From a virus, in IMG/VR virus record IMGVR_UViG_3300036770_002724, positions 32,001 through 96,000 of that record: DNA of 64,000 nt. One strand, given 5' to 3'. The position numbers and the translations under genes were made by a program. Under the pieces are notes generated by a model. It did no database searches, was not told the DNA's origin, and saw nothing but the letters and a program-made list of their open reading frames with translations. Position 1 is the first letter of the stretch, and each line of letters begins with the position of its first letter. Shown piece after piece: positions 1,146 through 36,555 of this stretch.

Positions 1146-3014
1146 ATGGGCCTAGCCAATATCGCGATGGGCGTGGGGCGTACCAAGCCCTCGGGAAGCG
1201 CCCCCTCTTCCGTCGTAGACATCATCACCTTCGCGGAATCCGACTGGGGACTGGGGTGTAACCTCTTTCCGGCTCAGAGAGTCATCCTCAAAGCCTTCTA
1301 CGGGATCCCTCTCAACGATACAGACAAGACGGTCCCCGTTTCGGACTGGCGTCGGCAAAGCTGGGCGCACATGACGGAAGCGGACTACCTCCGCAAGCTC
1401 TTCGACGACGGGCGGTCCAGTATCCGCGAGGTCGTCCCGGGAGATGAACGCCACGAGCTAGTTCTGAGCATCGGGCGCCGTTCAGGGAAGACGTTGATGG
1501 CGTCGGTCATCGCGACCTACGAGACGTACAAGCTGCTGCTGAAGGGGTGTCCTCAGAAGTACTACGGGCTTCCGACGACCAACGAGATCGGTATCGCCAG
1601 CGTCGCGACGGACAAGAAACAGGCAGGTATCCTCTACACAAACGTCTCAGGCTACTTCGCGGATTGTTCCTTCTTCTCGCAGTACATGGCGAATAGCACC
1701 CTGAGCTTCGCCAAGCTACAGACCCCCTACGACATCGAACGCTACGGTCGATTCAATGAGGCAGAGACCACCCGGTCCTCTATCTTCGTGAGCTTTCACG
1801 CTTGTGTCGCCAAGGGTCTTCGTGGTCCCGGCAACATCGTCATCATCCTCGACGAGCTAGCTCACTTCGTCGATGAGGGGCAGTCCTCCGCCGAACTGGT
1901 GTACAACGCGATCACGCCCAGCAAGTCGGCGTTTTCGCCCAAAGACCCCAACAGCCCCCAAGTCCCGACCGGCCCCGTAGAGGGGCGGGTGATCAGCATC
2001 AGTTCTCCTCTGGGTCGTCAGGGTCAGTTCTATTCCCTGTTTGAGATCGCCATGCGGGGGAGCGAGGCGAGCAAGGACATGCTCGCGATCCAGGCTCCGA
2101 CCTGGGAAGTCAACCCGACGGTCCCGGCGACCGAGTTCGAGAAGCACTACCTCAAGAATCAGACGGTCTTTTTCACGGAGTACGGGGCAGAGTTCACCGA
2201 CCGGACCCGAGGGTGGATCGAGCGGGCCGAAGACCTGGAAGCCTGCATTGACCCCACGGCAAAGCAGGTAGATGCTGCTCCGGCACGTCGCCCCCACTTC
2301 ATCGGGATCGACTTGGGCATGGTGGAGGACGCCTCTGCCGTGGCTATCGGCCACATCGAGGAACGCGAGGGTGAGAAGGTCATCATCGTGGATCTCGTGG
2401 ACCAGATCAAGGCTGGGGATGGCCGTTTCGCCAACGTCGAACGGCTAGATTTTGATGACATCGCGGACTGGATCCACCAGCTTTCCAAGCGGTTCTATCT
2501 GGCCGGTGGGGTGTTCGACCAGTGGGCGGGAATCCCGTTCGAGCAAGCTCTGGCAAAGCGGGGGCTTCGTCAACTGGTCTCGGAGCACATGACCAAGAAT
2601 CTGGTAAGCTCCATCTACCAGAACTTCAAGGACATGATGTTCGACCGTCGACTGGTCCTGTACGACGCCCCCATTCCTCCGGGCAAAAACCACTGCGATT
2701 ACATCCAGGAGCTTTTGGAGCTACAGGCACAGTCCGTCTCGAAGTACATCACGGTCGTCGAGGCTCCTAACATCGAGGGTAAGCACGATGACCGTTCGGA
2801 CGCCCTCGTCCGTATGGTCTGGCTCGCTAGCCAGAACATCACCAAACCCAAGTACATATCCAGGGGTGACGGGGCGACCTTGTCGCAGAGGACCGCAGCT
2901 ACGGCGAACATCCGGGAGGTCGCTAAAGCGGCTCTAGGTGCCCGTAAGATGGGGTCGCACCCTTCCCGGCAAGTTTCCCCTCTAGGCAGGGGTCGGGTTC
3001 TCGGTCGGAGGTGA
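1146..3014 (+). CDS. terL: Terminase large subunit
   Basis: Walker A SIGRRSGKT, Walker B IIILDE, coupling motif ISISSP, RNase H-like nuclease motifs IGIDLG and HDDRSDA. Confidence 0.95.
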   Translation: MGLANIAMGVGRTKPSGSAPSSVVDIITFAESDWGLGCNLFPAQRVILKAFYGIPLNDTDKTVPVSDWRRQSWAHMTEADYLRKLFDDGRSSIREVVPGDERHELVLSIGRRSGKTLMASVIATYETYKLLLKGCPQKYYGLPTTNEIGIASVATDKKQAGILYTNVSGYFADCSFFSQYMANSTLSFAKLQTPYDIERYGRFNEAETTRSSIFVSFHACVAKGLRGPGNIVIILDELAHFVDEGQSSAELVYNAITPSKSAFSPKDPNSPQVPTGPVEGRVISISSPLGRQGQFYSLFEIAMRGSEASKDMLAIQAPTWEVNPTVPATEFEKHYLKNQTVFFTEYGAEFTDRTRGWIERAEDLEACIDPTAKQVDAAPARRPHFIGIDLGMVEDASAVAIGHIEEREGEKVIIVDLVDQIKAGDGRFANVERLDFDDIADWIHQLSKRFYLAGGVFDQWAGIPFEQALAKRGLRQLVSEHMTKNLVSSIYQNFKDMMFDRRLVLYDAPIPPGKNHCDYIQELLELQAQSVSKYITVVEAPNIEGKHDDRSDALVRMVWLASQNITKPKYISRGDGATLSQRTAATANIREVAKAALGARKMGSHPSRQVSPLGRGRVLGRR

Positions 3015-3018
3015 TGTC

Positions 3019-3282
3019 ATGCCAAGCCTTTCGGTTACCAGTCCCGTTCGGGCCGACCATCGCTTTTTGAAGAAAGTCGTCTCCGTCATCCTTGGGGGTA
3101 AGGTAGAGAGTCGACCGAGCGAGTTCTCGATGATCTCCCGGGCTTTCGTTCAGGTAGGTGGTTCGTGGGAACGTATCTTCAAGGGCTCCCCCCAAGACGT
3201 GCATCTGCTCAAACGGATCGTCCGAAGAGCCTACAAGCTCGGATTGTTGACGAAGATAGAGCCGTGGGGGGCTCGTGACTAG
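3019..3282 (+). CDS. Hypothetical protein (87 aa)
   Basis: Fills gap between terL and the next ORF with tight spacing. Confidence 0.55.
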   Translation: MPSLSVTSPVRADHRFLKKVVSVILGGKVESRPSEFSMISRAFVQVGGSWERIFKGSPQDVHLLKRIVRRAYKLGLLTKIEPWGARD

Positions 3283-3676
3283 GTCAAGGGTACGTCGCCG
3301 TGCTCAGGAAGATTTCGGTCGGGAGATGCAGCAGCACATTTCCCGGTCCCTTCGGCATTTGATCCAAGCCCAAGAGATATGTCAGCGGATTGCACGGGAT
3401 GCGGATCCCATGAACCGCATTGAGGTTCGACGTGCAAGGGTCGCGAATCAGACGTTGAGCAGGGTGCGCTCGCTCATCGAACAGATTGGACCCTTGTCTC
3501 CGGGCTACGATAAGAGTGACCCCGACCTGACGCCCGAGACTACGAAGCGTCCGAGGCAGTCGGAAAAGCAAGCGTCACAACAGTCCGCAAAGCCGGTCAA
3601 GCGGGTGTTGTCATTCCAAGACCGGGTCCGGCAAGCCTTGGAGAAGATGAGGGAACAGGATGGCTCGGAACAATAA
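3275..3676 (+). CDS. Hypothetical basic protein (133 aa)
   Basis: GTG start overlapping the previous stop; end overlaps portal start. Confidence 0.55.
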   Translation: MTRSRVRRRAQEDFGREMQQHISRSLRHLIQAQEICQRIARDADPMNRIEVRRARVANQTLSRVRSLIEQIGPLSPGYDKSDPDLTPETTKRPRQSEKQASQQSAKPVKRVLSFQDRVRQALEKMREQDGSEQ

Positions 3677-5351
3677 TCCCGCTGATACGGTGAAGGTGGC
3701 GGAGATCCCCCCTCGTCCTAACGTCAAGGTAGGGAAGCCGGGTCAGGTCGTCACTACCGCCATGCGGATGAAGACGGCCTTTCCGACGGTCGGAGGCACC
3801 ACCCTGGGTTCTGGCGGCAACTTCTACTCGCCGGAGCTTTCGACCGACTTCCTTGAGCTTCCGCAGACCACCGACGAGCAGAGGAACTACTACAGGTTCT
3901 TCTATGACCACGACGAGTTCATCGGGCAGGCCATCGACCTGACCGCTGAACTTCCGTTGTCCAAGATCCGACTTCGGATGCCCGAGGCCAAGAACCGAGA
4001 GATCGCTGAACAGGCGATGCGGTTCTGTCAGCGGTGGTCCCGGAAAATCGGGCTCCTTCATCGGCTGATCTCCATCGTCCACGACTACTTTCTGGTCGGG
4101 GAAGCCTTCGTCTTTTGCGAGGACACCTCGCCAGATATGCCTCCCGACGTCCGGTCCTACGCAATCCGGGAGGTCAAGGAAGACGGCTCGACCGAAGAGA
4201 AGTGGCTCGACTACCCCGATGCAAACGAGCGTGCGGTTGCTTGGCTGAAAAAGAACTACCAGGGCTGGACGGCGGTTCGCGTCCTTCCACCTGAGCAGAT
4301 CCACATGGAGAGCTTCCCGTTCACGAACGAGAAGCTCATCGAACTGGTGGTGGACAGCAAGACCAAGGCTATCGTCCAGAAGGCGCAGCAGGGGGATCTT
4401 CGAGCGCAGCAGATCGTGGACTCCATGCCCCAGGAGATCGTCGAGGCTGTAATCAGCGGTCAGAACCTGCCCCTCAACACCGACCCCGATGCCGGGAGCT
4501 TCTGCTTTCATCTCGCCCGCAAGAAGTCTGACTACGAGCCCCGGGGAAAGAGCGTTCTACAGCGATGCCTTCGGACCCTGGTCTTTCGGGATAAGGTCCG
4601 TCAGGCTCTCACCAGCATCGCTTCCCGGCACATGACCCCGTTCCGGCTCATCTACGCGGAGGACATGGACGCCGAGCAGACCGAAGACCTCCGTGCCCAG
4701 GTTGACCTCGCCCTTCAGGATCCCGACTACTCCATCATCACCAACTTCCAAGTGAACTGGGAAGAGATGGGGGCCGACCAGCGTCTCCCGAACTGGGATT
4801 GGGTCTACGAGCAGACGAACAAGCAGCTTTACGCGGGCCTCGGTATGACAGAAAGCCTCCTCTCCGGCGAGAGCAGCTACTCAGGCGACCGGATTCACCT
4901 GGAGGTCATCAACACGCGGTTCATGCTTCTCCGCGAAGCTCTCCAAGACCTCGTCGAAGACTTCATGTTCAAGCCCATGTGCGCTCGCATGGGCTTCGTC
5001 GAGGAAGATGAGGACGGCAACCTCGAAGTGGTTTTCCCTCGACTGTCGTTCACCCGTCTGGCGCTTCGGGACAACCAGGAGACGTTCGACGCCCTGTTCA
5101 ACCTGTACCAGAAGGGCTCTCTGGACGTGGAGGTCATCCTCGACCTCCTGAACATCGACCCGCTGACGACCAAAGAAAAACTGGAAAAGGACATGCTCAC
5201 GCCGAATGACGCCCTTTTCAACGAGATCCTGCGGTCGGCGTACAGCGGGGTTGGAAACGCCCTTCCGGAGCAGACGGACATCATCGAACGGGCGGCGAAG
5301 GTCATGGGCCTGAAATACAAGCCCCCGGCTGAAGGCGGAGATCGTTTCTAG
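3660..5351 (+). CDS. Portal protein
   Basis: 563 aa after terL; portal-like segments (IGQAIDLTAELPLS, DYFLVGEAFVF, VRVLPPEQI, YEPRGKSVLQRCLR, LYAGLGMTESLLSG). Confidence 0.85.
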   Translation: MARNNNPADTVKVAEIPPRPNVKVGKPGQVVTTAMRMKTAFPTVGGTTLGSGGNFYSPELSTDFLELPQTTDEQRNYYRFFYDHDEFIGQAIDLTAELPLSKIRLRMPEAKNREIAEQAMRFCQRWSRKIGLLHRLISIVHDYFLVGEAFVFCEDTSPDMPPDVRSYAIREVKEDGSTEEKWLDYPDANERAVAWLKKNYQGWTAVRVLPPEQIHMESFPFTNEKLIELVVDSKTKAIVQKAQQGDLRAQQIVDSMPQEIVEAVISGQNLPLNTDPDAGSFCFHLARKKSDYEPRGKSVLQRCLRTLVFRDKVRQALTSIASRHMTPFRLIYAEDMDAEQTEDLRAQVDLALQDPDYSIITNFQVNWEEMGADQRLPNWDWVYEQTNKQLYAGLGMTESLLSGESSYSGDRIHLEVINTRFMLLREALQDLVEDFMFKPMCARMGFVEEDEDGNLEVVFPRLSFTRLALRDNQETFDALFNLYQKGSLDVEVILDLLNIDPLTTKEKLEKDMLTPNDALFNEILRSAYSGVGNALPEQTDIIERAAKVMGLKYKPPAEGGDRF

Positions 5352-5382
5352 CTCTATCAGGCTCCCCTAGTCAGAGGAGCCT

Positions 5383-6717
5383 ATGCACCCCAAAGCCTCA
5401 GTCGCCTTGATGAAGTTCCTATCCGGTGCTGCTCGACGGCTCGGAGTAGGCGATCACGCTTATGTCGTAGGGGGTGCCGTCCGGAACTACGTCCTCGGGG
5501 TTCCGATCAAGGACGTCGATCTGGTCATCGATCCCACCGTTCAGCCCGGTAAGGACTCGGCCTGGTTCGCGAAGCAGCTACAGAAGCTCATCCCCGCCCC
5601 GACCAGTCTCGTGACCAACAACTACGGGGTCGCCATCCTGTCGGTGAACGGCCCTTGGGTTCTTGGCGGTCACGACCTGGACGGGGAGAAGATCGAGATC
5701 GCAAATGCCCGCAGCGAGTCCTACGCTGAAGGGGGCTACAAGCCCGATCAAGTCGTTCCGGCCACGATCCAAGAAGACGTTTACCGCAGGGAGTTCACCT
5801 TCAACACCTTGCTGTGGCGGCTAAAGGATCTCGCGCAAGGGCCGGACAAGGCAGAGATCATTGACCTCACGGGTTGCGGGCTTCGCGACCTTGAGCGAGG
5901 GGTCATGGCTTGTCCCCGCGATCCCGATGAGGTGTTCGCGGATGACCCGAGCCGGATGATCCGGGCGGTCAAGTTTACCATCAAGTACGGGTTCAAGATC
6001 CCCCCGGACCTAGAAGCCTCGATTCGACGGAACGCTTCTCGACTTCGCCAGATTCCTCCCGGGCACATCACCAACATGCTCATCGAGACTTTCTTGCGGG
6101 ATCCGTCCGGCAAGAAGGCTCTGATGGAGATGGACCGTCTCGGGCTTCTCGCGGTCATCCGAGAGATCGCTCAGGATAACAAGTCTTTCCGACAGAGTCT
6201 CGCCAACTGGGCGGAGTCTGAGGCGAGCGTAGCCTTCCTCTTCGACCTGATGGATCTCGGTATGCCCGTGGGAAAGAAACTGACCTTCCTGTCCCCAGAG
6301 GATGTCTCCAGGGTTCGCGAGGTCACCTTCGACATGACTCCCGCGAAGGGTGAAGCCTACGTCTCCGTCCTCAAGCAGCCGGGTCGGGTTCTGGACTTCC
6401 CCTCGCTCATTCAGGAGTTCGATCTGAAGGGGCCGGGGGTTGGTGTTCTTACAGACGTTGCCCGCCGGTCCTTGCTCGAAGATCCTGACCTGATTGACGA
6501 CTCTCGGCGCTTCTCTGACCAAGTGCGTCAGAGACTCATGTCCAAGAGGGTTGCTTCGCGCGTTCTGGCTTCGGTTCGTCGTCCCTCGGTCGAGGAGAGC
6601 GATAGCCCCCGCGAGTACCTCGGCTCCCCGCTCTCGACACGCCCTGATTACGGGCGAGGTTCCTCTAGCCGGGTCGCTAGCCGGGTCGCTAGTCGATGGC
6701 TCGCGAGTAGGCGTTGA
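5383..6717 (+). CDS. cca: Class II nucleotidyltransferase (CCA-adding enzyme / poly(A) polymerase family) with C-terminal RVASR repeats
   Basis: YVVGGAVRN..KDVDL (DxD), ARSESY, RREFTFN, GLRDL, DDPSRMIRAVKF; tail KRVASRVLAS...SRVASRVASRWLASRR. Confidence 0.9.
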   Translation: MHPKASVALMKFLSGAARRLGVGDHAYVVGGAVRNYVLGVPIKDVDLVIDPTVQPGKDSAWFAKQLQKLIPAPTSLVTNNYGVAILSVNGPWVLGGHDLDGEKIEIANARSESYAEGGYKPDQVVPATIQEDVYRREFTFNTLLWRLKDLAQGPDKAEIIDLTGCGLRDLERGVMACPRDPDEVFADDPSRMIRAVKFTIKYGFKIPPDLEASIRRNASRLRQIPPGHITNMLIETFLRDPSGKKALMEMDRLGLLAVIREIAQDNKSFRQSLANWAESEASVAFLFDLMDLGMPVGKKLTFLSPEDVSRVREVTFDMTPAKGEAYVSVLKQPGRVLDFPSLIQEFDLKGPGVGVLTDVARRSLLEDPDLIDDSRRFSDQVRQRLMSKRVASRVLASVRRPSVEESDSPREYLGSPLSTRPDYGRGSSSRVASRVASRWLASRR

Positions 6718-6733
6718 GTATTCGAGGCGTGTC

Positions 6734-9700
6734 ATGTCTATCTGGTTGGAAGCCGCTCTGGACGAACTTCACGGACCCCTTTCCGACTGGGTTCACTATG
6801 GTCGTTCCGGTTCCAAGCGAGAACTGTTTGAGGCATACGACGGGCTTGCGCCTCAAGCGAAGATGGCTCTGGCAGGCGCGGTGAGAAAAGCGTTCGGAGG
6901 CTCCTCCAAGGCTATCATGTACCGACGGCTGAAATCCTCCGGAGAGGCTAGCCGGATGGGAGGGATGTCTCTCACAACAGCCCTTCCTGGCTACGTCGAG
7001 GCGGAGGCGTTCGAGGTTGAAGCCGATGACGTCCTCGTCCATCACGGTGTCCCCGGAACCCCGCTTAGTAGCAAAGCCTTCGGGCACGAGAAAGAGGTCA
7101 TCTTGAAGCCGACGGCGAACCCGAAGAGTCTAGGCCCGGTTCCGGCTAACAGGACTGCGGCCCGCTACAAGGATAAGAAGCAAGTCCCGAAGGCTGATGG
7201 GAAGGGAAAGACGACGGTCTACGAGTACAGCGACCGTCAGGTCGCCCTCCGAAATCGAGAGAAGGCCAAGCAGGTCGAGAAGATCCGAAGGTCCATCGGG
7301 GATCTGAGGGAGCAAGTCCGGAAAGACCTCAAGTCGAAAGACGAGCACACCCGGAACGTCGCCCTAGCTGTAGGTCTCCTGGACAAAACTTACGAGCGCG
7401 TCGGGAATGAGGATTCGGCCAAAGACGGTCACGTCGGGGTCACCGGCTGGAAGGTGAAGCACCTCACGGTTGGCAAGGACAAGATCACGATCAAGTACGT
7501 CGGCAAGTCGGGGGTCAAGCACGAGAAGGTCGTCGACAACGCTGCCTCGGTTGCCGCGATCAAGAAGGCTATCGAAGGTAAGAAGGATGACGACCTCATC
7601 TGCGGGTGCTCTGCCGAGGACGTGAACGAATACTTGGAACCCTTCGACATCACCGCTAAAGACCTTCGGGGCTACCACGCCAACACCGAGATGCAGACCC
7701 GGCTGAAGCGGATTCGATCCGAGAACGGGGCGCTCCCCAAGAATCGGGAAGAGCGGAAGGAAACGCTCAAGGAGGAGTTCGATCAAGCCCTGGAGGAGAC
7801 GGCGGAGGCGGTCGGTCACGAACCCTCGACCTTGCGTTCCCAGTACCTCGTCCCCGGACTCGAAGACGAGTTTATGAAGGACGGTGAGGTGAGCCAGACG
7901 CTCGACAAGCGGGGCTCATCCGTGAAGGTCGCTCTACGCGAAGGCTCCGGTCTGTCGCGGATCGCGGGAAGGATTCGGACGGTCCCTACCCCAGATTCCC
8001 TTGTACCTTCGTCTGTTCGCTCTTTTTTCAACCGGAATCAAGCGGTATTTGATCGGTATCCCGACTTGTGGCTGAAGGGCGGGGCGGCGCGCGGGACTTT
8101 TGTTTCTTGGGCGTTTCTCAAGCTATTCGGAGCTAGGGCGGAGCCCAAAGAGGCTAGGGACTTCGATTTCGTCACTTTCAGTCAAGAGGGTCCTTGGGAA
8201 GTCGAGGGTGAATCCGTCGAATTCGCATCCTCCGTTTCGGCTTACATGGGGTCGAGAGACTTCGGGGTGAACGAGGTTCTCCTTCGTCCGGACAGGATGG
8301 TTTTTTCGGACAAGGCTTGGAGGGATGTTCTCCGGCTTGAGATTTCCCCTCGTTCTGTCATCGAAGAAGACCGCTACGGGCGGACGGGGCTTCGCGCGCT
8401 CTTGTTCGTTCTGGAGCTAGGATTTAGCCCAGGGAAGTTCATCGCGGAAGAGATCAAGAAGGCGGATACTTGGAATCTTCTTCTCCATCTATTCAAAGCA
8501 TACGAGAAGGGGATAGAGGACGATTACTTCCTCTACATCAAGAAGTCTGGGGGGGTGCTAACGGAACGGATAGCTACGGTAGACGACTGGCTGATCGAGC
8601 TAGTTGGAGCAACCCCGCATTTTTCGTTGCGGCCTTACCATAAGGCTATCTTGGATAAGGCTAAAGAAATGTCGAATCTCGGGAAAGACCCGTTCGATTC
8701 GATACCCCGGTCGGCTTCCGAGTCTCTTCTTCAACATTGGTTCGCCTCCTCTTTTGACCGGGTCGCCACGAAGACCGAGGGGGAGAAGGAAAACGAAGAG
8801 GTCGAGCGGCTGGTCAAGCCAGCCCCCAAGACCAAGCCCCCGCGTCAAGACCTTCGCCGCAATCGGATGAAGGTTGAGGACGAGGACGTTGAGCGTCCAA
8901 GTGCGGAGTCGGATCGGGATCTCTCCCTGAACTACAAGAAGGTCGCCGCCGAATTGACCGCTCGTTGGTACGGGGTCATCCCGCCTCGCCCCAAGCCTCC
9001 GAAGCCGCCCCCTCTACCGCCGAGGGATCCGATCCCCGGATGGAACCCTGTTACCCTTGATCTTGCCCAGAAAAAGTCCCGCAAGCCGGGCGACGTGTGG
9101 CGATCCAAGACCCCGGGTCGTTGGCTCGCGATGAATTCGGAGGAGACTGTACATTCCTTTGAGGACAGATCGAAGGCAGAGTCTTTCTCCCAGAACGGGA
9201 AAAGGGCATCGAACGCGGAGTGGTTGGCTCTACGGTTCGCAGATGCCCCCTTGAATCCTACGGACCACAGACCCGGTGACGTTTGGGAATCTGAACGTAC
9301 TCCTGGTCGCTGGTTAGGGAAGAACCCCGAAGGTGTGTCGAAGTCTTTTGACACGAAGGAAGAGGCTCAATCCTTCGCGAAATCCGAAGCGACCTCAGAG
9401 TCCGAAGCCCCAGAAGACGGTGACCTTCAGACCAAGGATACGACTCCCCAAGAGCCGCCGCCGCCGCCGAGCCCAGAGGAGTCGATCTCTCAGATGGTGA
9501 AATCCCTCTCAAACCTAGAGGACGAGCAGATCCAATCGACTCTCGAAAGTTTCTCAGACGCGGAACGCGCCAAGATTGCAGAGACCTTTGCCCAAGAGAG
9601 CGAGACGCTTCGACGTGCGTTTGAGGATGGTACGCTCCTCGGCTCCGACAAGGATCTCAAAGAGGTCTCGGAGGCGTTTGAGAACCCTTCCTCTTCTGTG

Positions 9701-10771
9701 GAGCCTTCCCTGCTGGGTAAGCGACTCGCACAAGCCCTCTTTGCTAAGACCGTTCTGGCCAACCCTCTCCAAGTCGGGAGCCCCCTCAGTGCCGCCCCCT
9801 TGGCTGACGACCAGCTATCCAAGCGACGTGTGGACTCCATGAAGCACTTTGGCCAGATGTCCCCCGCGATTCGCTCGGAGGCCATGAAGAACATCCACCA
9901 GGAGATGACTCAGATCCCGGACGATAAGAGCGAAGCCTCGGAGGCTAAAAAAGCTGACCTCCAAGCTCGCCTCGTTGGACTCACCCTTGCCGCTGCCATG
10001 AAAGATGAACCTTGCTCGGCCAAGGTCGAGGGCGAATGGGGAGAAGAGGACAAAGAGCTACACCCCCCTATCCCTCCAGCTACCGTGAAGCTGTTGAAAG
10101 CCTTGGACAAGCAGGGTCAGTCTAGCTTGGTTCTTGATGCCGTCTCCGCGCGCGGGACTCCGAAAGGTCGTGAAGCCTTCGTGAAGGCGCTGGAGTCTAT
10201 GGGGGAGGATGGACTCCTCAGTTTTGCCAAGAGCGTGGATGCCTTTTCGGACATGGTGGATGTCCTGGAAGACTCCGATACGACCTCTCTGGTTCGCCTA
10301 AAGACCCAAGCGGTCCTCCAGGATCTCATCGTCAACCACTTGATGTTCGGAGACATGTTCACCCAAGACGCTCTCGACGAGTCCGATGAGCGCCGTCCCA
10401 AGAAACGTAAGCAGAAGTCTGACAAGATGAAGTCTGAGCCGAGCCCAAGGACCTTGAGGAAGATCAAGGATCTAAACAGTTGCATCAGGGACAAGGGCTT
10501 CACCAGCGAATGTGAGGTTCTTTCTCTGGATGTCGAAAAGACCGCCCTTGATGATCTTTTCAAGGACATTCTGCGTGACATCGGCAAGATCCCCAAAGGC
10601 AGTGAGGCCAGGGCTCAGATGGAAGCGTTCCAGCAGGAAGAGAACGTGGAGGACGCCCAAAAAATCTTGAAGACGCTGTTCGTACAGACGGGCGACCTCC
10701 CGTCTGGGGCACGGTCTCAGCCCACTAGAACCGCAGGACTAGAAGAACTGTGGGGCGATTATCTCCAATAA
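6734..10771 (+). CDS. Multidomain protein: ADP-ribosyltransferase-like domain + type IB DNA topoisomerase + class II nucleotidyltransferase-like domain + two short repeats + helical C-terminus
   Basis: Start reassigned to ATG 6734. ART-like R-S-E pattern (IMYRR, MSLTT, HEKEVIL); TopIB pentad ERVGN (R), VGKSG (K), KDLRGYHAN (R), VGHE (H), RSQYL (Y at 7844-7846); LWLKGGAAR..RDFDF..SRDFGVNE; two PGDVW..TPGRWL..N.E...SF repeats. Confidence 0.8.
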   Translation: MSIWLEAALDELHGPLSDWVHYGRSGSKRELFEAYDGLAPQAKMALAGAVRKAFGGSSKAIMYRRLKSSGEASRMGGMSLTTALPGYVEAEAFEVEADDVLVHHGVPGTPLSSKAFGHEKEVILKPTANPKSLGPVPANRTAARYKDKKQVPKADGKGKTTVYEYSDRQVALRNREKAKQVEKIRRSIGDLREQVRKDLKSKDEHTRNVALAVGLLDKTYERVGNEDSAKDGHVGVTGWKVKHLTVGKDKITIKYVGKSGVKHEKVVDNAASVAAIKKAIEGKKDDDLICGCSAEDVNEYLEPFDITAKDLRGYHANTEMQTRLKRIRSENGALPKNREERKETLKEEFDQALEETAEAVGHEPSTLRSQYLVPGLEDEFMKDGEVSQTLDKRGSSVKVALREGSGLSRIAGRIRTVPTPDSLVPSSVRSFFNRNQAVFDRYPDLWLKGGAARGTFVSWAFLKLFGARAEPKEARDFDFVTFSQEGPWEVEGESVEFASSVSAYMGSRDFGVNEVLLRPDRMVFSDKAWRDVLRLEISPRSVIEEDRYGRTGLRALLFVLELGFSPGKFIAEEIKKADTWNLLLHLFKAYEKGIEDDYFLYIKKSGGVLTERIATVDDWLIELVGATPHFSLRPYHKAILDKAKEMSNLGKDPFDSIPRSASESLLQHWFASSFDRVATKTEGEKENEEVERLVKPAPKTKPPRQDLRRNRMKVEDEDVERPSAESDRDLSLNYKKVAAELTARWYGVIPPRPKPPKPPPLPPRDPIPGWNPVTLDLAQKKSRKPGDVWRSKTPGRWLAMNSEETVHSFEDRSKAESFSQNGKRASNAEWLALRFADAPLNPTDHRPGDVWESERTPGRWLGKNPEGVSKSFDTKEEAQSFAKSEATSESEAPEDGDLQTKDTTPQEPPPPPSPEESISQMVKSLSNLEDEQIQSTLESFSDAERAKIAETFAQESETLRRAFEDGTLLGSDKDLKEVSEAFENPSSSVEPSLLGKRLAQALFAKTVLANPLQVGSPLSAAPLADDQLSKRRVDSMKHFGQMSPAIRSEAMKNIHQEMTQIPDDKSEASEAKKADLQARLVGLTLAAAMKDEPCSAKVEGEWGEEDKELHPPIPPATVKLLKALDKQGQSSLVLDAVSARGTPKGREAFVKALESMGEDGLLSFAKSVDAFSDMVDVLEDSDTTSLVRLKTQAVLQDLIVNHLMFGDMFTQDALDESDERRPKKRKQKSDKMKSEPSPRTLRKIKDLNSCIRDKGFTSECEVLSLDVEKTALDDLFKDILRDIGKIPKGSEARAQMEAFQQEENVEDAQKILKTLFVQTGDLPSGARSQPTRTAGLEELWGDYLQ

Positions 10772-10904
10772 AATGAGGGCTTGGGGGCGGGTACGATGGG
10801 CGTACTTGGTTTCCCGGTTTTCAATCTATACCAAGGGCGTACTAGCAGAGGATGCCTTTGCGCCTTCGGGTCGCAGTCCTCGGCCCAGCCCTAAAAAGGA
10901 GTCG

Positions 10905-11876
10905 ATGATGAGCAAGCTGACCAAGAAAGGCGCGCAGGCCGTGACGGCGGACCTTGATCGCCTCGCCAATCTGTTCCAGACGAACCACAAGGTGCTCGGT
11001 GTCCCCGCGCGTATCGCGACGGATTTCGCCTACCGGCTCGATCTTCTGTCGGACACCATCGAAAAGAAGGCGGGACTTCGTCGTACCGCCCTGACCGGCG
11101 ATGATGTTTTTCAGGAGTCGGGTTTCGATCCCGAGGCTATCGGGATGGAGCAGGACGGCCCCCTTGAGACCGTGGACTCGGACGAGCCCTGGATGGCGGG
11201 CGAGTTCACCGCCCAAGAGAACCGGGAGCTTCGCGAGCTTCAGCAGGCGGGAGCCCTTGGCCCCGAGGTCGTGGACGGTCCCCGTGCTCCGACTCCGGGG
11301 AAGCAGGCGGCGCTCGCTCGTCTGGATGCTGCCAACCGAAATCTTCTTCGCCTCGCGAAGACCTCGCCCCGTCTCGCCGGGGGTCTGACCCGTCTCGCGG
11401 CTCAGGTTCTCAATGTCAAGGCTGGCTACCTTGAGGGCCAGGTCTCGATGGGCCACGTCGCCAAGACCGTGAAGGCGGCGAAGCTCGCCGCCGAGCAGGT
11501 CGAGAAGTCTGAGGAGAAGGAAGCCGAGGAGAAGGAGCCGGGCGAGGAGAAGAAGGTCGCCAAGCTCGTCGCGATGGCTCACCGGATCGCTTCCAACACG
11601 CGCAAGGTTGCGAGGGTCGCGGATGCGTACATGCTCCTAGATTTCATGCAGAATTCTTGGGAGCACTACGAGTCCGTGTCTGAAGCGGTTCCACAAATCG
11701 TCAAACTTGGTTTCCCGTCTACCTTCGCCAAGGCTTTTCTCCAAGCGTGGGTGAAGAACCGTATTGGTTTGGTGCCGTTCAGGCAACGGACGAAAGCGGG
11801 AGCCAAGTTCATCGCAGATATGGCTTCGGAGCACGGGGTTCCCATCGATCCGGACTTCATCGTAGAGTGGGGCTGA
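10905..11876 (+). CDS. Putative internal head / scaffold-associated protein
   Basis: SD AAGGAG before ATGATG 10905/10908; acidic and Ala-rich with RRTA, KQAA and RIAS..KVARVA motifs. Confidence 0.5.
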   Translation: MMSKLTKKGAQAVTADLDRLANLFQTNHKVLGVPARIATDFAYRLDLLSDTIEKKAGLRRTALTGDDVFQESGFDPEAIGMEQDGPLETVDSDEPWMAGEFTAQENRELRELQQAGALGPEVVDGPRAPTPGKQAALARLDAANRNLLRLAKTSPRLAGGLTRLAAQVLNVKAGYLEGQVSMGHVAKTVKAAKLAAEQVEKSEEKEAEEKEPGEEKKVAKLVAMAHRIASNTRKVARVADAYMLLDFMQNSWEHYESVSEAVPQIVKLGFPSTFAKAFLQAWVKNRIGLVPFRQRTKAGAKFIADMASEHGVPIDPDFIVEWG

Positions 11877-11932
11877 GACGGGGCGGTTACAACCTGTCCG
11901 CTTGAACGTATGAACTTCGGCTGGGAGCCGCC

Positions 11933-12529
11933 ATGACCAAGCGTCTGTCGCGAAAAGTTGCCGTGGTGAACTACCAGAACCGGGCAAAGGATTTTGCCAT
12001 CGGTGACATGGTTTATCCTTACACCCAAGTCGGGGCTGGGATGAACCCCACGGCGTATTCGGGGCGTATCGTTGCCGTCTGGCCCGCTATCGGGATGGTG
12101 GACGTGGAGTTTCCCACGGGTAACACCCGGTTCCCGGTCGAAGAGCTACAAAAGACCCATTCCCAGGATGCTGTTCCGCCGAAGCCGACGGCGGATACTG
12201 TTCCGGGAGGGGCGGGTTCGGAGCCTGTCTCAGCGGGTCCGAAGGATGCGGATCCTGGTCAGAAGACCGCTTCTCGGATTGCATCTCGGGTGGCTCAGGC
12301 TTACGTCAAGAGGGCTCTCTACTGGGGGGCCTCTGACCGGCACTACCGGGCCACTCGGTCGGAGCTTGATCAGAACAGCTTTTGCTGTCCTCGATGTGAC
12401 AAGGAAAGCCTACTCCAAAAGGCTGTCTACAAGCGGGAGGATGGTCAGAGTGTCCGTCTCCTCGCCTGCAAGAAATGCCTGTTCCTGATCAAGCCCGACC
12501 AGATTCTCAACCACCCGACGGATGAATAG
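11933..12529 (+). CDS. Hypothetical protein with SH3-like N-terminus and C-terminal Zn ribbon
   Basis: FAIGDMVYP..GRIVAVWPAIGMVDVEF; CPRC...CKKC; contains SRIASRVAQAY. Confidence 0.6.
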   Translation: MTKRLSRKVAVVNYQNRAKDFAIGDMVYPYTQVGAGMNPTAYSGRIVAVWPAIGMVDVEFPTGNTRFPVEELQKTHSQDAVPPKPTADTVPGGAGSEPVSAGPKDADPGQKTASRIASRVAQAYVKRALYWGASDRHYRATRSELDQNSFCCPRCDKESLLQKAVYKREDGQSVRLLACKKCLFLIKPDQILNHPTDE

Positions 12530-12538
12530 GGGAGAGGC

Positions 12539-15280
12539 ATGGCTTTCCTGAAGTACGCCAAGGCTGCGGTCGTCACCCCCTTCGTCACCCGGCAGCAGTG
12601 GACGAACGTCCGCGTCGCAGGTGAGTCGGCCAAGGTGGATCTTCCTTCCAACCTCGTCGAGAGGGCTGCTACCCTTTTTGACGAGCCCTTCGACCCCAAG
12701 AAGTACCTTTTGACCCACGCGACCATCGTCGCCTCCGTGGATGTCTTCGCCCCCAAAGGCGTGAAGGTCGGCAAGGTTCAGGAGGACGGCTTTCGGGTCA
12801 ATCGCAAGTACGCCGACTACAGGGTCAAGGCGGACTGCCAGAAGTACATCAACAACAACCGGGACTGTTGGTCCCGTGCTGTTCTTGCCAAATCCTACAA
12901 GACCTTCGTGGGGAGCCACAACTTCGTCGAGCACGTCCAGATTGAGGACTTGTCGAAGGGTCGTATCATCGACGCGGTGGCCCGGGACATCGGGGAGTCG
13001 ATTTACGTCGACATCTTGATTGCGACCGACCGTAAGCACAAGGATCTCGTCGAGGCCATCCAGTCGGGCAAGATGGGAACCCTGTCGATGGGCTGTTTCC
13101 TTCCTGGGACTCAGGTCACAATGGCGGACGGACGCCGTATTGCCATTGAGGATGTGCAGCCTGGCGATATGGTTTTGACCCACAAAGGTCGTTCGCGTGA
13201 GGTTCTGAATAAGCAGATCCGAGGCGGCAAGTGGGACATGCGGACGATCCACGCTGTCGGGCTGGCCTCCCCCATCACGTCCACCGGAAACCACCCCTAC
13301 TACGTCCTGCGCCCAGCCGAGGTTTGCGCTTGCGGGTGCGGTGAGGCGTTGCCCGTTTATGCCCCGGCGGTGAAGAAGCCGACAACCCGTAGCCTGACTC
13401 GACGGTTCAAGGTTGGGCACGACAAGCGCATCCTGAATCCAAACAACACCTACTCGATGGACGAGTTCAAGCGTCGGAAGGCGCAGATGAACGAGATCCA
13501 GAACCCCGATTTGGTGAAGGTTCGGGCTGATGAGCTTCGGGTCGGGGACTTCATCGCCTTTCCACGGGTGAAAGACGGGGAGCACACGGTCCCTGTTTCT
13601 GAGGGCAAGGCTCGCTTGCTGGGATACTTTTTGGCTGAAGGTAGCTTCAACAAGCGGAAGGGTCGTCGGACGACTGTGGTGTTCTCGTTCTCAATGGAGG
13701 AGAAGGACACCCTCGTCGCAGAGGTGGTTCGGCTGTTGGAACAAGAGTTCCCCGGCAAAAACAAGCCGTGGGTGCAAGATCGGGTCAAGCGGAACACCTG
13801 CGTGGTCCACCTGACCAGTCGCAAGGCGGCAGATTGGTTCCACAAGCACGGCGGCGAGTACAGCCACGGCAAGTGCCTGTCTGCTGACGCGATGAACTGG
13901 TCGCAGGAGAACCACAAGCATCTGATCGGAACGTGGCTCAATGGGGACGGTCACCGTGCCAAGGCTCACGGGGGGTTCCTCGTGGGTACCACCGTGTCAT
14001 TGGACCTCGCTAACCAGTTGCACGCCCTGATGGCGAAATGCGGCTGGTTTGCTCGCTTTGAAGCCCGCATTGGATCGAAGTCGATCACGGTAGCAGAGGC
14101 CATCAACGGTGGGGTCGCTGTTCGTGACGAGTCCACAGGACGCCTCCCGGCTTTCTTGTTGACCATCGGGAACACGCAATCGGTCGAGTTGCAAGGCTAC
14201 TGTGCTAAGGCTCCCGCCACGTCGAAGTACGGCAAACAGAACAATCGCGTCTTCGATGACTGGGTGATCAGCCCGATCACGGCTATTGGGGAGAGCACCT
14301 ACGAAGGTTGGGTTCACGATATGGAAGTGGACGAAGACCACACCTATGTCGCAGAGGGGGCTTCGGTTTCAAATTGTACGGTAGACGGTACGATATGTAC
14401 GAAGTGCGGCCACTGGGCTTCGGATGAGACGGAGATGTGCCCCCACGTCAAGTACGAGAAGGGGAATACCTTCTACGACAAGGAAGGTCGGAAGCACATC
14501 GTGGCAGAGCTTTGCGGTCACGAGGATCTGGACCCGACCGGAGGCGTGAAGTTCATCGAAGCCTCTTGGGTGGCGACTCCGGCGTTCACGGGCGCGGTTC
14601 TTAGGAACGTCCTGGAGCCGACCGTGGAGATTTCTCGCAAGGCTCAGAAGGTGCTATCCTCTCCCCCGAATCAGTGGGACGAGAGCGCCCGTAAGAAAGC
14701 GGCTTTCTCGCTTGACCAGAAGTCTCTGGAAGGTCGGGTAGAGGCCCGTCGCCGGGCACGGCTCGCTTCGATTTACGCCCAAGATGATGGGATGTCCGAC
14801 CCCTCTGAGGGGGGTGGTGAAGCTGCGAAGGCGGAGCCTGCGAGCCCCCTGAAGGACATTGAGGACCAGTTGACCCAGACCTTGCTCGACAAGGTGCGGA
14901 AGCGGGTCGAGGACACCATCAAGGATGACACCAAGCCTATGGGTCCGCCCGAGGCTTCGATTGCCACGAACGAAAGTCTCAGCAGGGTCGCTCACATCCC
15001 CGGTATGATCCGGGTTTACGAGCAAGGTCTACGGAAGCTCGCACGAACGGCCACTACGGATGTTGAGCTTGTGGACCGTATTGCGGATTATCACAAAGGA
15101 ATCGGTCTGGAAGTTCCCGTTTCTGTCTATAGAGCCTGCCTAAAGGTAGGTGCAGTAGGCAACTACGGGTCGCAACAGGAGTTCCTGTCGTCCTGCCGGA
15201 AGGCTCTCGGTCGAAACCCCACGAAGGTGGAAGCGGGAGTCCTCATCCGACTGGGAAAGCTCCTCTCCCACGTTGGGTGA
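12539..15280 (+). CDS. Prohead (capsid maturation) serine protease precursor interrupted by an intein
   Basis: Extein motifs NFVEH, GTLSMG/C and FIEASWVATPAF typical of HK97/herpes-fold prohead proteases; located before scaffold and capsid genes. Confidence 0.85.
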   Translation: MAFLKYAKAAVVTPFVTRQQWTNVRVAGESAKVDLPSNLVERAATLFDEPFDPKKYLLTHATIVASVDVFAPKGVKVGKVQEDGFRVNRKYADYRVKADCQKYINNNRDCWSRAVLAKSYKTFVGSHNFVEHVQIEDLSKGRIIDAVARDIGESIYVDILIATDRKHKDLVEAIQSGKMGTLSMGCFLPGTQVTMADGRRIAIEDVQPGDMVLTHKGRSREVLNKQIRGGKWDMRTIHAVGLASPITSTGNHPYYVLRPAEVCACGCGEALPVYAPAVKKPTTRSLTRRFKVGHDKRILNPNNTYSMDEFKRRKAQMNEIQNPDLVKVRADELRVGDFIAFPRVKDGEHTVPVSEGKARLLGYFLAEGSFNKRKGRRTTVVFSFSMEEKDTLVAEVVRLLEQEFPGKNKPWVQDRVKRNTCVVHLTSRKAADWFHKHGGEYSHGKCLSADAMNWSQENHKHLIGTWLNGDGHRAKAHGGFLVGTTVSLDLANQLHALMAKCGWFARFEARIGSKSITVAEAINGGVAVRDESTGRLPAFLLTIGNTQSVELQGYCAKAPATSKYGKQNNRVFDDWVISPITAIGESTYEGWVHDMEVDEDHTYVAEGASVSNCTVDGTICTKCGHWASDETEMCPHVKYEKGNTFYDKEGRKHIVAELCGHEDLDPTGGVKFIEASWVATPAFTGAVLRNVLEPTVEISRKAQKVLSSPPNQWDESARKKAAFSLDQKSLEGRVEARRRARLASIYAQDDGMSDPSEGGGEAAKAEPASPLKDIEDQLTQTLLDKVRKRVEDTIKDDTKPMGPPEASIATNESLSRVAHIPGMIRVYEQGLRKLARTATTDVELVDRIADYHKGIGLEVPVSVYRACLKVGAVGNYGSQQEFLSSCRKALGRNPTKVEAGVLIRLGKLLSHVG
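13094..14374 (+). mobile_element. Intein (427 aa) with LAGLIDADG homing endonuclease
   Basis: Block A CFLPGTQVTMADG, block B ITSTGNHPYY, LLGYFLAEGS and LIGTWLNGDG, block F/G VHDMEVDEDHTYVAEGASVSN followed by Cys+1. Confidence 0.95.
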
Positions 15281-15328
15281 GGGCGAATGGAACGCAACGC
15301 AGTCGCCATTCATGCAAAGGAGAATCAA

Positions 15329-17203
15329 ATGAGCATCAGGAAGCGCATGACTTGGGCGGGTCGCAAGGCGTCGAACCCTCCCGCTATGCCTGGCTACGGA
15401 ACCGAGGATCAGGATCACCCGGCGCACTACCCGGACCCTGCCGCTGACCTCTACGAGAACGGTGACACGGACTCGTGGGCGGAGACCCCGAAGCCCCCGC
15501 CCTACCCGCAGGGCAATCCCCCGGCGATGCCGGGTTACGACACTGAGGATCAGGATCACCCGGCTTATGTCCAGCAGCCGCGCGTTCCGAAGTCGGCGGC
15601 TCTTCGCGCCCGTATTGAGCGCAAGGCGGCGAAGTGCGCTCGCATCGCGCAGTCGATGCTCGGCCCCCAAGCCCCGATGGCGATGGTCGAGGACCAGTCG
15701 CTCGCCCTCATGGATCTCCCTGACTCGGAGATTGACGCGACCCTCGCTCGGATGAGCGGTGGGATGCTCATGGCCGAGGAGCACGAGGGTGGCGATGAAG
15801 AGGCCATGCTCGCGGAGATGATGGCTGAAGAGGGTGTTGAGGCCGAGGAGCACGAGGGTGGTGACGAAGAGGCCATGCTCGCGGAGATGATGGAAGAGGC
15901 CGGAGACGAGATGCTCGCGGGTCGTACTTGGGGCAACCCTTTCCCTCGTCGGACGCCCGATGACAACGTCCCTTATAACAAGCATCCCGGTTCGCCGCCC
16001 GCAGGGGCGAATGGTTCTCCGGAGCGGAAGAAGTACAACCAGTGGTTCCGTGAGAACGTCTGCCCGGATCACAAGACGAACTGCGGTATGCCGAAGAAGA
16101 AGACCGCTGAAGATGCCATGCTCGCTCAGATGATGATCGAGGAAGGCATGATGGCGGGCGATGAGGAAGGCATGGAGGCCGGAGACGACGGTCTCATGGC
16201 GTCCATGCTCGCGGAGATTGAGGCTCTTCAGGCTGAGAACCAGGCTCTCAAGGCGGGCAGGCGGGCCAATCAGAATGACCCCAAGGGTCCGACCCTTGGT
16301 GCCAAGTCCAAGTCGGTTGAACAGGCCGAGGCCGAGGCTATGGCCTTGGCCGATGAAGAGTTCAAGACCGCCGAGGACGAGTTGGACGCCGAAGAGGAGT
16401 CCATGCTCGCGGAGATGGTGAAGCAGGAGGCCAAGAAGGCTGCTCTTCGCCGTCGCGCCAAGAAGTCCGAGGAGGTCGAGTCCGAGGAGGTCGAGTCCGA
16501 GGACGAGGTCGAGGCCGAGGAGGAGGCCCCCAAGGCTTCCAAGAAGAAGGCCAAGAAGTCCGAGGAGGTCGAGTCCGAGGACGAGCATGAGGCCGAGGAC
16601 GAGGAGGCCCCCAAGGCTTCCAAGAAGAAGGCCAAGTCCTCGATGGGTTGTGGTGACTCTCCGGGCGCGATGTTCGCTATCGACGAGGAGGCCAACGACC
16701 CGATGGGTCTGATGGGCGAGGCCGAGATCCACGAGGGAGATGAGATGCTCCTGGCTGAAATCTTCGGCAAGAAGGCAGCCGAGGATGAGGTCGAGGCCGA
16801 GGACGAGGAGGCCCCCAAGGCTTCCAAGAAGAAGGCCAAGAAGTCCGAGGATGAGGTCGAGGCTGAAGAGGAAGAGGCGTCCGAGGAGGAAGTCGCTTCC
16901 AAGAAGGCGGCTCTCCGTGCGGCCCTCCTGCGTCGGGCAAAGGCCAAGAAGTCCGAGGATGAGGTCGAGGCCGAGGATGAGGTCGAGGCCGAGGATGAGG
17001 TCGAGGCCGAAGAGGCCAAGAAGGAGGCTCGCCGCCTAGCGGCGCGTCGCCAAGAGGCTCTCCGCCCGCAGCCCCGTAAGCCGAATCACGGGATCAAGAC
17101 CATTGGCGGGATGTCGCGTTCTGCCGGTTCGCGGAGCGAGGTCGGTGACCTGGAGAATCTCTGGGAGACCGCCCCGGACGTGAGCGCCGTCTTCGGCAAG
17201 TGA
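15329..17203 (+). CDS. Scaffolding / head-core-like protein with acidic and Lys-Ala repeats
   Basis: SD AAGGAGA before ATG 15329; repeats NPPAMPGYxTEDQDHPA x2, EEHEGGDEEAMLAEMM x2, KKAKKSEDEVEAE(D/E)E many times; between protease and capsid genes. Confidence 0.75.
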   Translation: MSIRKRMTWAGRKASNPPAMPGYGTEDQDHPAHYPDPAADLYENGDTDSWAETPKPPPYPQGNPPAMPGYDTEDQDHPAYVQQPRVPKSAALRARIERKAAKCARIAQSMLGPQAPMAMVEDQSLALMDLPDSEIDATLARMSGGMLMAEEHEGGDEEAMLAEMMAEEGVEAEEHEGGDEEAMLAEMMEEAGDEMLAGRTWGNPFPRRTPDDNVPYNKHPGSPPAGANGSPERKKYNQWFRENVCPDHKTNCGMPKKKTAEDAMLAQMMIEEGMMAGDEEGMEAGDDGLMASMLAEIEALQAENQALKAGRRANQNDPKGPTLGAKSKSVEQAEAEAMALADEEFKTAEDELDAEEESMLAEMVKQEAKKAALRRRAKKSEEVESEEVESEDEVEAEEEAPKASKKKAKKSEEVESEDEHEAEDEEAPKASKKKAKSSMGCGDSPGAMFAIDEEANDPMGLMGEAEIHEGDEMLLAEIFGKKAAEDEVEAEDEEAPKASKKKAKKSEDEVEAEEEEASEEEVASKKAALRAALLRRAKAKKSEDEVEAEDEVEAEDEVEAEEAKKEARRLAARRQEALRPQPRKPNHGIKTIGGMSRSAGSRSEVGDLENLWETAPDVSAVFGK

Positions 17204-17221
17204 TCCGCTAGTCGGACCACT

Positions 17222-17268
17222 AAAAGCCCCTTGGACCTGATTTCTAGGTCCAAGGGGCTTTTTCTTTT
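17222..17268. terminator. Intrinsic terminator, possibly bidirectional
   Basis: Perfect 17-bp stem AAAAGCCCCTTGGACCT / AGGTCCAAGGGGCTTTT, 7-nt loop, followed by TCTTTT. Confidence 0.85.
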
Positions 17269-17430
17269 CCCTCTGACCCCCACCTTCGTTTTTCGTTCGA
17301 TACCGAGGACGTAGTGTTAGGCGAACCACGGAAACGTGTTTCGTCGAGCGAGGTCTTCTCTCCATGTCGGGGGGTATGGCCATAAACGAATCCACTTTCC
17401 TGTAAACAGGGAGCAACTCAGGAGGCGTAT

Positions 17431-18120: not shown

Positions 18121-18138
18121 GAAAGGAGATGGTTCGTC

Positions 18139-19011: not shown

Positions 19012-19039
19012 TCAAGCCCGCGTAATCGCTGGACAATAG

Positions 19040-19084
19040 ACGCCTAGCGTTCCCCTCAAAAGGAACGCTAGGCGTTTTTTGTTT
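19040..19084 (+). terminator. Intrinsic terminator after major capsid gene
   Basis: 14-bp stem ACGCCTAGCGTTCC / GGAACGCTAGGCGT followed by TTTTTGTTT. Confidence 0.9.
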
Positions 19085-19163
19085 GTCCGGCCCTCCCGCC
19101 TACCCTCTTCGGTTCTTGTGTGTACGATTGTTGTTGATACCGCGCATCTGGTCGTATACTGTT

Positions 19164-36464: not shown

Positions 36465-36555
36465 ATACGCAGGGTTCTATAGAAGGGCGAGCGGAGGGGA
36501 TCAGACGTTACGGGATTCGGATTCGTCATTATTCTTTCTCTAGCGTCTTTTAGGT

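Follow-up and report, generated by a model that had tools for sequence, protein, structure and literature searches.

Here, we describe an open reading frame (ORF) of 1,345 amino acids (aa) located in a stretch of viral DNA of 64,000 nucleotides (the window), which covers bases 32001-96000 of the 139,036-bp IMG/VR virus record IMGVR_UViG_3300036770_002724. The ORF is genuine and intact, and it encodes a modular protein of three enzymes whose position in the head module is conserved, with a type IB topoisomerase (TopIB) set between an ADP-ribosyltransferase (ART)-like module and a class II nucleotidyltransferase (NTase)-like module. On balance, we favour the view that it is a TopIB-centred, tag-delimited variant of the "polyvalent" capsid-delivered proteins of phages, that is, a modular cargo encoded in the head cluster of a probably huge phage. 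The record itself is probably a fragment of such a phage, since its CheckV completeness is 26%. A first-pass annotation, made from the letters of the window alone, had read three enzyme signatures in this single frame; the signatures are confirmed in the sequence and all three segment identities survived testing, with a modest fold match in the case of the ART. Domain identities, catalytic residues that are all intact, and the modular architecture can be seen directly in the following parts of the ORF, all of which are on the plus strand.

6734-10771, plus strand: whole ORF, with ATG at 6734 and stop at 10769-10771, 1,345 aa, unbroken
6734-7138, plus strand: module 1, compact ART-like domain, aa 1-135, with R64, S79 and E119-x-E121 invariant
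7148-7168, plus strand: tag 1, NRTAARY, at the ART/TopIB border
7148-7909, plus strand: module 2, TopIB catalytic domain, aa 139-392 (Pfam PF01028, E 1e-28)
7955-7975, plus strand: tag 2, SRIAGRI, at the TopIB/NTase-like border
7946-8683, plus strand: module 3, predicted divergent class II NTase head and neck, aa 405-650
8750-8968, plus strand: link, aa 673-745, with a DRVATKT tag, an acidic run, LVKPAPKTKPPRQDLR and DLSLNYKKVAAE
8978-9043, plus strand: proline-rich spacer, aa 749-770
9086-9385, plus strand: two copies of a mini-domain of ~38 aa, aa 785-822 and 847-884, PGDVW..G.W.G.N..G..SF....A.SF
9404-10768, plus strand: C-terminal acidic region of 455 residues, aa 891-1345, common to 13 relatives

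The central module matches the Pfam family PF01028 (Topoisom_I) over aa 173-366 at 100.7 bits, against a cut-off of 23.7, and a phmmer search of solved structures returned TopIB matches at E ~1e-12, among them variola TopIB (2h7f, E 2.7e-12). Aligned to 2h7f, residues R222, K258, R312, H362 and Y371 correspond to poxvirus R130, K167, R223, H265 and Y274, and this pentad is invariant in 120/120 relatives. The complete catalytic pentad that had been proposed at about 7160-7900 is thus present, and the position given for the tyrosine codon, 7844-7846 (Y371), is exact. By fold family, module 2 is a type IB topoisomerase, for which relaxation of supercoiled DNA via a 3'-phosphotyrosyl intermediate is predicted.

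For module 1, a search with aa 1-138 against 1.84 billion cluster representatives returned 99 homologues, many of them standalone proteins of 139-180 aa and others cassettes in larger proteins. Only six columns are invariant in an alignment of 30 homologues (W19, K28, R64, S79, E119 and E121), and these include the R-S-E pattern that had been noted at about 6734-7110 (R64 codon at 6923-6925, S79 at 6968-6970, E119/E121 at 7088-7096). In the AlphaFold (AF2) model of the module (predicted local distance difference test, pLDDT, 96.3), R64 ends strand 59-64, S79-L-T opens strand 79-81 and E119-K-E121 comes before strand 121-124. This is the layout of the R-S-E clade, with an arginine ending strand 1, Ser-x-Ser/Thr on strand 2 and Gln/Glu-x-Glu just before strand 5. 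Compared with 48,161 chains in VIA-align, the model gave a list whose top ~30 entries were nearly all R-S-E ARTs, including 8za7 (Listeria ART toxin), CPILE-a, ExoS, C3, C2-I, Certhrax, XopAI, Tre1, HopU1 and VIP2, with matches covering residues 1-136, 110-116 residues aligned and Z of only 5.3-4.0. No Pfam match at E <= 1 was found for any of the 30 members, the ART-PolyVal family PF18760 included; there was likewise no PHROG match and no PDB sequence match, and hhalign found no relation between the module's family and the ART-PolyVal-bearing relative P0005. Based on the make-up of the fold-search list together with the invariant motif, we accept module 1 as a likely ART, with good confidence. 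Enzymes with the Glu-x-Glu form of the motif mostly act on arginine, T4 Alt being an example. The ~135-aa R-S-ExE family, with its 99 cluster representatives, is undetected by current domain libraries. In other proteins the same cassette co-occurs with Phage_Mu_F (P0162), Zincin_1 and GNAT (P0194), InPase (P0127, P0161) and NUDIX (P0169) domains.

The third module carries the motifs G449-G-A-A-R (from 8078), D476-F-D478 (8159-8167), E496 and R508-D-F-G-V-N-E (from 8255). The GGAAR, DFD and RDFGVN motifs expected of an NTase head at about 7980-8700 are therefore present, and they are kept in ten copies of the module, all of which retain LW-KGG-x-AR, RD-x-D, an acidic residue on the next strand, RD-x-G-x-NE and PR-x-x-LR. 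The motifs are colinear with motifs A, B and D of canonical class II enzymes in a weak hhalign alignment (E 0.02). With the AF2 model (pLDDT 78), the best Foldseek matches were all class II tRNA NTases (E ~1e-3, prob 1.0), and VIA-align placed five CCA-adding or poly(A) enzymes (3h37, 4wby, 1miv, 3aql, 1ou5) at Z 9.2-8.1 over 200-221 residues, versus Z 4.9 for the first unrelated chain. By sequence alone, phmmer reached 1miv at E 0.44, and word-indexed searches with the module alone gave no match at either length setting. The module is 246 aa long and ends at the next tag, compared with 344-517 residues in the matched chains, and has neither the tRNA-binding body nor the tail. Judged by motif order and predicted fold, it is a divergent, minimal class II NTase head and neck, representing a family that current domain libraries fail to detect. 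It occurs in only 9/119 relatives, always between TopIB and link.

A ribosome-binding site, GAGG at 6724-6727, stands seven bases before the ATG at 6734, and standalone homologues of the first domain begin at the ORF's start residue. Upstream of the ATG the frame stays open as far as 6494, over DNA that also encodes, in a different frame, the end of the preceding gene. A frameshift or readthrough fusing the upstream NTase gene (5383-6717) to the ORF was considered and rejected, because the ORF's frame upstream of 6734 has the look of off-frame sequence, GAGG precedes the ATG and the ART homologues start at the same residue. The GC content at third codon positions (GC3) is 0.80 in TopIB and 0.74 in the link, similar to terminase, portal, NTase and major capsid genes (0.72-0.81), and lower in the cassettes, with 0.65 in the ART and 0.61 in the NTase-like module. 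This difference supports an old core with newer cassettes. A BFVD fold search returned uncharacterised phage proteins only, at E ~2e-3.

The protein belongs to a large and apparently undescribed family of modular TopIB proteins. A first homologue search returned 207 relatives of 740-2,350 aa on contigs of up to 375 kb, with TopIB cores 55-78% identical. Domains variously joined to TopIB include PolyA_pol, PAP2, 2H/LigT, RNA ligase, HAD-like, ART-PolyVal, GNAT, NUDIX, SOD and carbonic anhydrase, among others, and the modules around TopIB vary between loci, being exchanged, fused or split. The same ART cassette is joined to TopIB in P0002, where it lies downstream of TopIB, and in P0003, the closest full-length relative, a Cys-rich module replaces the NTase-like module and there is no ART. 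Seven relatives from independent samples (P0004, P0006, P0007, P0010, P0011, P0013 and P0020) share the order TopIB, NTase-like module, link. None of the other listed relatives (119) has both the ART and the NTase-like modules, and a search for the same architecture found the exact three-module combination in one protein cluster, on one contig, with its parts recurring in relatives. That single occurrence would fit an assembly chimera or a decaying pseudogene with dead domains, a possibility that the first-pass annotation had raised in the case of the chimera. We consider this highly improbable, as the 4-kb frame is unbroken with every catalytic residue in place, the module order recurs in the seven relatives, ART and TopIB are also joined in P0002, and the module borders coincide exactly with tags found throughout the family.

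The link, a basic and acidic segment in which DLSLNYKK comes after LVKPAPKTKPPRQDLR, is present in 110/119 relatives and is, with TopIB, the second near-universal element of the family. The ORF tail beyond it is described as helical. Neither the C-terminal half of the ORF nor the link protein of locus L038 (see below) has a match in PHROGs, and no family match was found for the acidic region at aa 891-1345. The C-terminal half corresponds to a conserved head protein which some lineages encode in a gene of its own, a point that the first-pass annotation had missed. The mini-domain is found in at least 12 further copies in other TopIB-family proteins, in the form PGDVW..G.W.G.N..G..(S/T)F....A..FAKG.

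In the window, the ORF is surrounded by genes for head formation and DNA packaging.

1146-3014, plus strand: large terminase (TerL)
3660-5351, plus strand: Mu-type portal
5383-6717, plus strand: canonical class II NTase (CCA/poly(A)-type; PF01743, E 3e-17), directly after the portal gene
6734-10771, plus strand: the three-module ORF, 1,345 aa
10773-11876, plus strand: g10773, conserved, with no assigned function
11933-12529, plus strand: g11933, conserved, with no assigned function, 198 aa
12539-15280, plus strand: prohead protease, intein-interrupted (Hint and LAGLIDADG matches)
15287-17203, plus strand: acidic repeat protein, 638 aa
17431-18120, plus strand: 229-aa protein
18139-19011, plus strand: major capsid protein (MCP)

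The ORF thus lies between portal and prohead protease, as had been annotated, and shares this interval with the genes at 5383-6717, 10773-11876 and 11933-12529. A hairpin scan of positions 3000-20000 found strong terminator-like hairpins at 17222-17262 and 19038-19077 only, and no strong terminator between the portal gene and 17222, which places the ORF inside a probable head operon. A profile scan of IMG/VR yielded 55 loci on contigs of up to 536 kb, and the head proteins of this phage were compared by tblastn over 58 related loci, duplicates included. In ~49/58 of these, TopIB is on the same strand and the order is TerL, portal, (NTase), TopIB, link, g10773, g11933, protease and MCP. A second arrangement is seen in L038, where the modules are separate genes: a standalone TopIB of 349 aa, which opens with ..SLRVAARYQEKKK, where the motif of tag 1 recurs, lies between terminase and portal, and the link makes up the N-terminal part of another protein, of 358 aa, encoded directly after the portal. 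L038 also has three tandem paralogous genes of ~175 aa each (11017-12605), with no family match, between its standalone TopIB and portal genes.

The canonical NTase gene upstream of the ORF encodes a 60-aa basic tail with three RVASR tags, arising partly from a direct DNA repeat at ~6671-6694. Sequence matches link its product to the N-terminal domain of 19 TopIB proteins, with E between 1e-92 and 1e-125 (E ~1e-125 for P0018, P0014, P0037 and others), so that, by sequence, this phage has the split version of a common NTase-TopIB fusion. The first-pass annotation had not noticed this gene.

Several observations were made on the other neighbours. An intein-free ortholog of the protease in locus L001 (14275-15825, 516 aa) matches phrog_18299, a head maturation protease, at E 6e-13, and has no PDB relative by sequence search. 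The g11933 protein, found in 49/58 related loci, has a C-terminal CxxC...CxxC zinc ribbon and no family match. The protein encoded at 15287-17203, which sits between the protease and capsid genes, is highly acidic with many EDEVEAE and APKASKKKAK repeats; it may be a scaffold and, being acidic, could be a partner for the Arg-rich tags. The MCP is 83-93% identical across loci (L020, L026, L008 and others) whose TopIB is only 55-70% identical, and at the sequence level the capsid shell is far more constrained than the presumed cargo.

The distribution of the parts also bears on a reading in which the protein is a head-assembly enzyme rather than a delivered effector. TopIB would then be tethered near the portal and relieve twist during packaging or ejection of several hundred kb of DNA, with the other modules as add-ons, none of them needed in the next host. 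In accordance with this, TopIB (120/120) and link (110/119) are the only near-universal parts, both resemble core head genes in their GC3, they always adjoin the TerL and portal genes and are directly between both in one lineage, and the contigs reach 536 kb. The repeated fusion of RNA-repair, ART, NUDIX, GNAT and SOD modules, which have no packaging role, would however be left unexplained, and we know of no phage that needs a topoisomerase for packaging. We consider this reading unlikely by itself, and as it is compatible with delivered cargo, the two are not exclusive.

Even less probable, in our view, is that the protein is part of a non-virion, intracellular enzyme cluster for DNA topology and RNA repair which merely shares the late head operon. 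Such a cluster would be in line with virion association being so far a prediction, and with the description of a phage-type topoisomerase I under DNA metabolism in the jumbo phages Lu11, PaBG and phiRSL1 (PMC7824862). It is difficult to reconcile with a portal-protease position that persists even where TopIB identity between loci is no more than 48-70%, and with cassettes shared with MuF, zincin and InPase polyvalent proteins; moreover, late expression makes little sense for enzymes acting against early defence unless they are carried to the next host.

Short tags lie at the module borders. The linker motif RTAARY that had been pointed out at 7151-7168 is present, along with two more copies of its class in the ORF. 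This class, [RK][VITL]A[ASGT][RKHQ][aromatic/aliphatic], occurs 141 times in 120 relatives, versus 11 times in shuffled sequences, and has the consensus R-V-A-[AS]-R-[WYF]-L. The tags lie between modules or at protein ends, and never within the TopIB domain; in 9 relatives and in the upstream NTase a tag stands at the very C-terminus. Other copies in the window are found in the upstream NTase tail (three), near the C-terminus of the ORF at 36544-37500, in g10773 and in g11933, whose orthologues keep RVAxAF[VL], a sequence resembling the cargo tag. That the tag is part of the TopIB fold was also considered, and rejected because tags are also present at the C-terminal ends of proteins, at borders of other modules and in proteins of the phage that are unrelated. 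A complex prediction of MCP with the tag-bearing tail of the upstream NTase scored 0.00, which speaks neither for nor against binding. The tags may be protease cut sites, a role to which we give somewhat less than even chances; docking helices are an equally good reading, given that tags are also found at the very C-terminal ends of proteins.

In this regard, the protein might also be packaged and delivered uncleaved, as one multi-enzyme protein whose tags are short docking helices on a head component or flexible linkers. We hold this to be rather unlikely. Cutting at the C-terminal tags of the nine relatives and the upstream NTase would remove few residues, a motif related to the tag is conserved inside the head protein g11933, and full-length transfer is described for some polyvalent proteins (PMC5512222), all of which would suit an uncut protein; a 150-kDa protein would nevertheless have to pass the tail channel unfolded.

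The conserved backbone of the family consists of the TopIB catalytic domain and the basic/acidic link, to which two swappable cassettes have been added in this phage, the R-S-ExE ART-like module in front and the minimal class II NTase between TopIB and link. Backbone and cassettes are fused to the long acidic tail, with R-V-A-x-R-aromatic tags at every module border. For delivered cargo, we infer the following course of events. The protein would be made late, together with the head proteins, be incorporated into the procapsid through the conserved link, the tail or the tags, possibly be cut at the tags by the prohead protease, and enter the next host along with the DNA. There, the ART may modify a host protein using NAD+, with an arginine target as in T4 Alt; TopIB may relax or otherwise handle the incoming genome, like the poxvirus virion topoisomerase; and the two NTases, module 3 and the product of the upstream gene, may repair or lengthen the 3' ends of RNAs, such as the CCA ends of tRNAs that host defence nucleases have damaged. 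The roles of host modification, relaxation of incoming DNA and RNA tailing are plausible by analogy to T4 Alt, poxvirus topoisomerase and CCA-adding enzymes, respectively.

Loading into the capsid and delivery of the ORF protein seem to us reasonably probable, a judgement based on the conserved position in the head module and on the cassettes shared with polyvalent proteins. The earlier proposal of a packaged protein has gained only indirect backing, from the head-module position in ~49/58 loci and from polyvalent proteins with MuF, zincin and InPase domains that carry the ART cassette as well; its further suggestion of cleavage into several enzymes is a conjecture, with tags located at the module borders. 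A number of points weigh against delivered cargo or against individual domain assignments. Packaging, cleavage and injection are conjectural for this uncultured phage, and the ORF itself contains no MuF, portal or zincin domain according to Pfam. The ART fold match is weak, with a best Z of 5.3 that does not reach the value rated by VIA-align itself as common among unrelated models, and Foldseek gave no match for this module at E <= 0.001. The TopIB alignment starts at variola residue 62 and only ~15 residues, including the tag, precede it, so that an N-terminal DNA-binding domain of the poxvirus/bacterial type appears essentially absent from module 2. Module 3 has no Pfam match at E <= 1, its model is of moderate confidence (pLDDT 78, TM 0.40-0.48), and its relation to canonical NTases is weak (hhalign E 0.02). 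Further, only 6/98 homologues of the ART cassette have a tag beside the domain, and the tag is absent from the MCP and not obviously at the self-processing site of the protease in this phage.

As a broader and more tentative idea, which we think could be true but would not bet on, a capsid-borne TopIB with its link may belong to the core of the head in a large clade of huge phages, and the R-V-A-x-R-aromatic tag may be a general address label, possibly also a cut mark, that loads any enzyme cassette, so that each phage would inject a "first-aid kit" of its own, serving DNA topology, RNA repair and takeover of the host. The cassettes would include ART, NTases, 2H, RNA ligase, phosphatases, NUDIX and SOD, and the system would parallel, in phages, the virion topoisomerase of poxviruses as well as the peptides that load cargo into encapsulins. 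If proteins of this kind are packaged, the capsids of a large, widespread group of huge phages contain a TopIB, so far a poxvirus hallmark, and this TopIB travels with interchangeable RNA-repair and host-modifying enzymes. The handling of very large phage genomes at entry would then become testable, as would the pre-empting of tRNA-cutting and NAD-based defences before phage gene expression and the use of the seven-residue tag as a loader of foreign proteins into phage heads, including for engineering.

Among known systems, the closest are the polyvalent proteins of phages and conjugative elements (Iyer, Burroughs, Anand, de Souza and Aravind 2017; PMC5512222), where Phage_Mu_F, zincin, GNAT, InPase and NUDIX domains are described as capsid-delivered. 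As in those proteins, disparate enzymatic domains are found here in one polypeptide encoded among virion and packaging genes; ART, 2H, GNAT, NUDIX and InPase cassettes are common to both, and delivery with the DNA is proposed in both cases. Polyvalent proteins have a MuF or portal fusion or a zincin-like peptidase, whereas the ORF at 6734-10771 is without any of these. The text of that study, as searched, contains no topoisomerase IB, no CCA-type NTases and no comparable short tag, and states that 2H domains never associate with RNA ligases (PMC5512222). Unlike this, relatives in the TopIB family combine TopIB with RNA ligase, 2H, PAP2 and NTase domains.

T4 Alt is a packaged and injected Arg-specific ADP-ribosyltransferase whose capsid-targeting sequence is removed by gp21. 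The system is summarised in the same study (PMC5512222). The likeness lies in the R-S-E type predicted for the phage ART and in the loading of Alt into the head via a short peptide signal tied to the head protease. There is no detectable sequence relation, as the ART module has no PHROG or Pfam match, and the ART-like module described here differs in being ~135 aa long and fused to other enzymes; the tag has another sequence and, instead of being confined to the N-terminus, is found between modules.

The TopIB of poxviruses (vaccinia and variola) is carried in the virus particle and aids early transcription. It resembles module 2 in being a small TopIB with the same R-K-R-H-Y pentad, and differs in that module 2 lacks the N-terminal DNA-recognition domain and is one part of a 1,345-aa protein of a tailed phage. 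Similarly, module 3 shares with class II tRNA NTases (CCA-adding, A-adding and bacterial poly(A) polymerase; PF01743) a head and neck fold in which GGxxR, DxD, a third carboxylate, RDxxxN and PRxxLR are colinear, and is unlike them in falling below Pfam detection, in its longer GGxxR-DxD spacer and in having no body or tail.

In literature searches, neither a TopIB packaged by a phage nor this modular TopIB family was found described. In the jumbo phages Lu11, PaBG, phiRSL1 and Motura, a phage-specific topoisomerase I is treated as a replication and repair gene and not as head cargo (PMC7824862). These phages share with ours a topoisomerase I of the tyrosine-recombinase fold in a large phage, and the relation is only distant (Lu11 tblastn E 0.8; Xanthomonas PhiXhv phages 30% identity), as is the case for all TopIB relatives in records of cultured phages. 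In Xanthomonas phage PhiXhv-15 (L005, PV764602.1), a 668-aa "topoisomerase" encoded at 7116-9122 has a distant TopIB core with 30% identity, and in 228-kb cultured Xanthomonas/Erwinia jumbo phages the 668-aa topoisomerase gene is a few genes upstream of the head-tail connector gene, making these phages possible culturable models for virion association. Specific to the protein described here are its ART cassette without a Pfam or PHROGs model, its minimal NTase cassette and its split from the canonical NTase.

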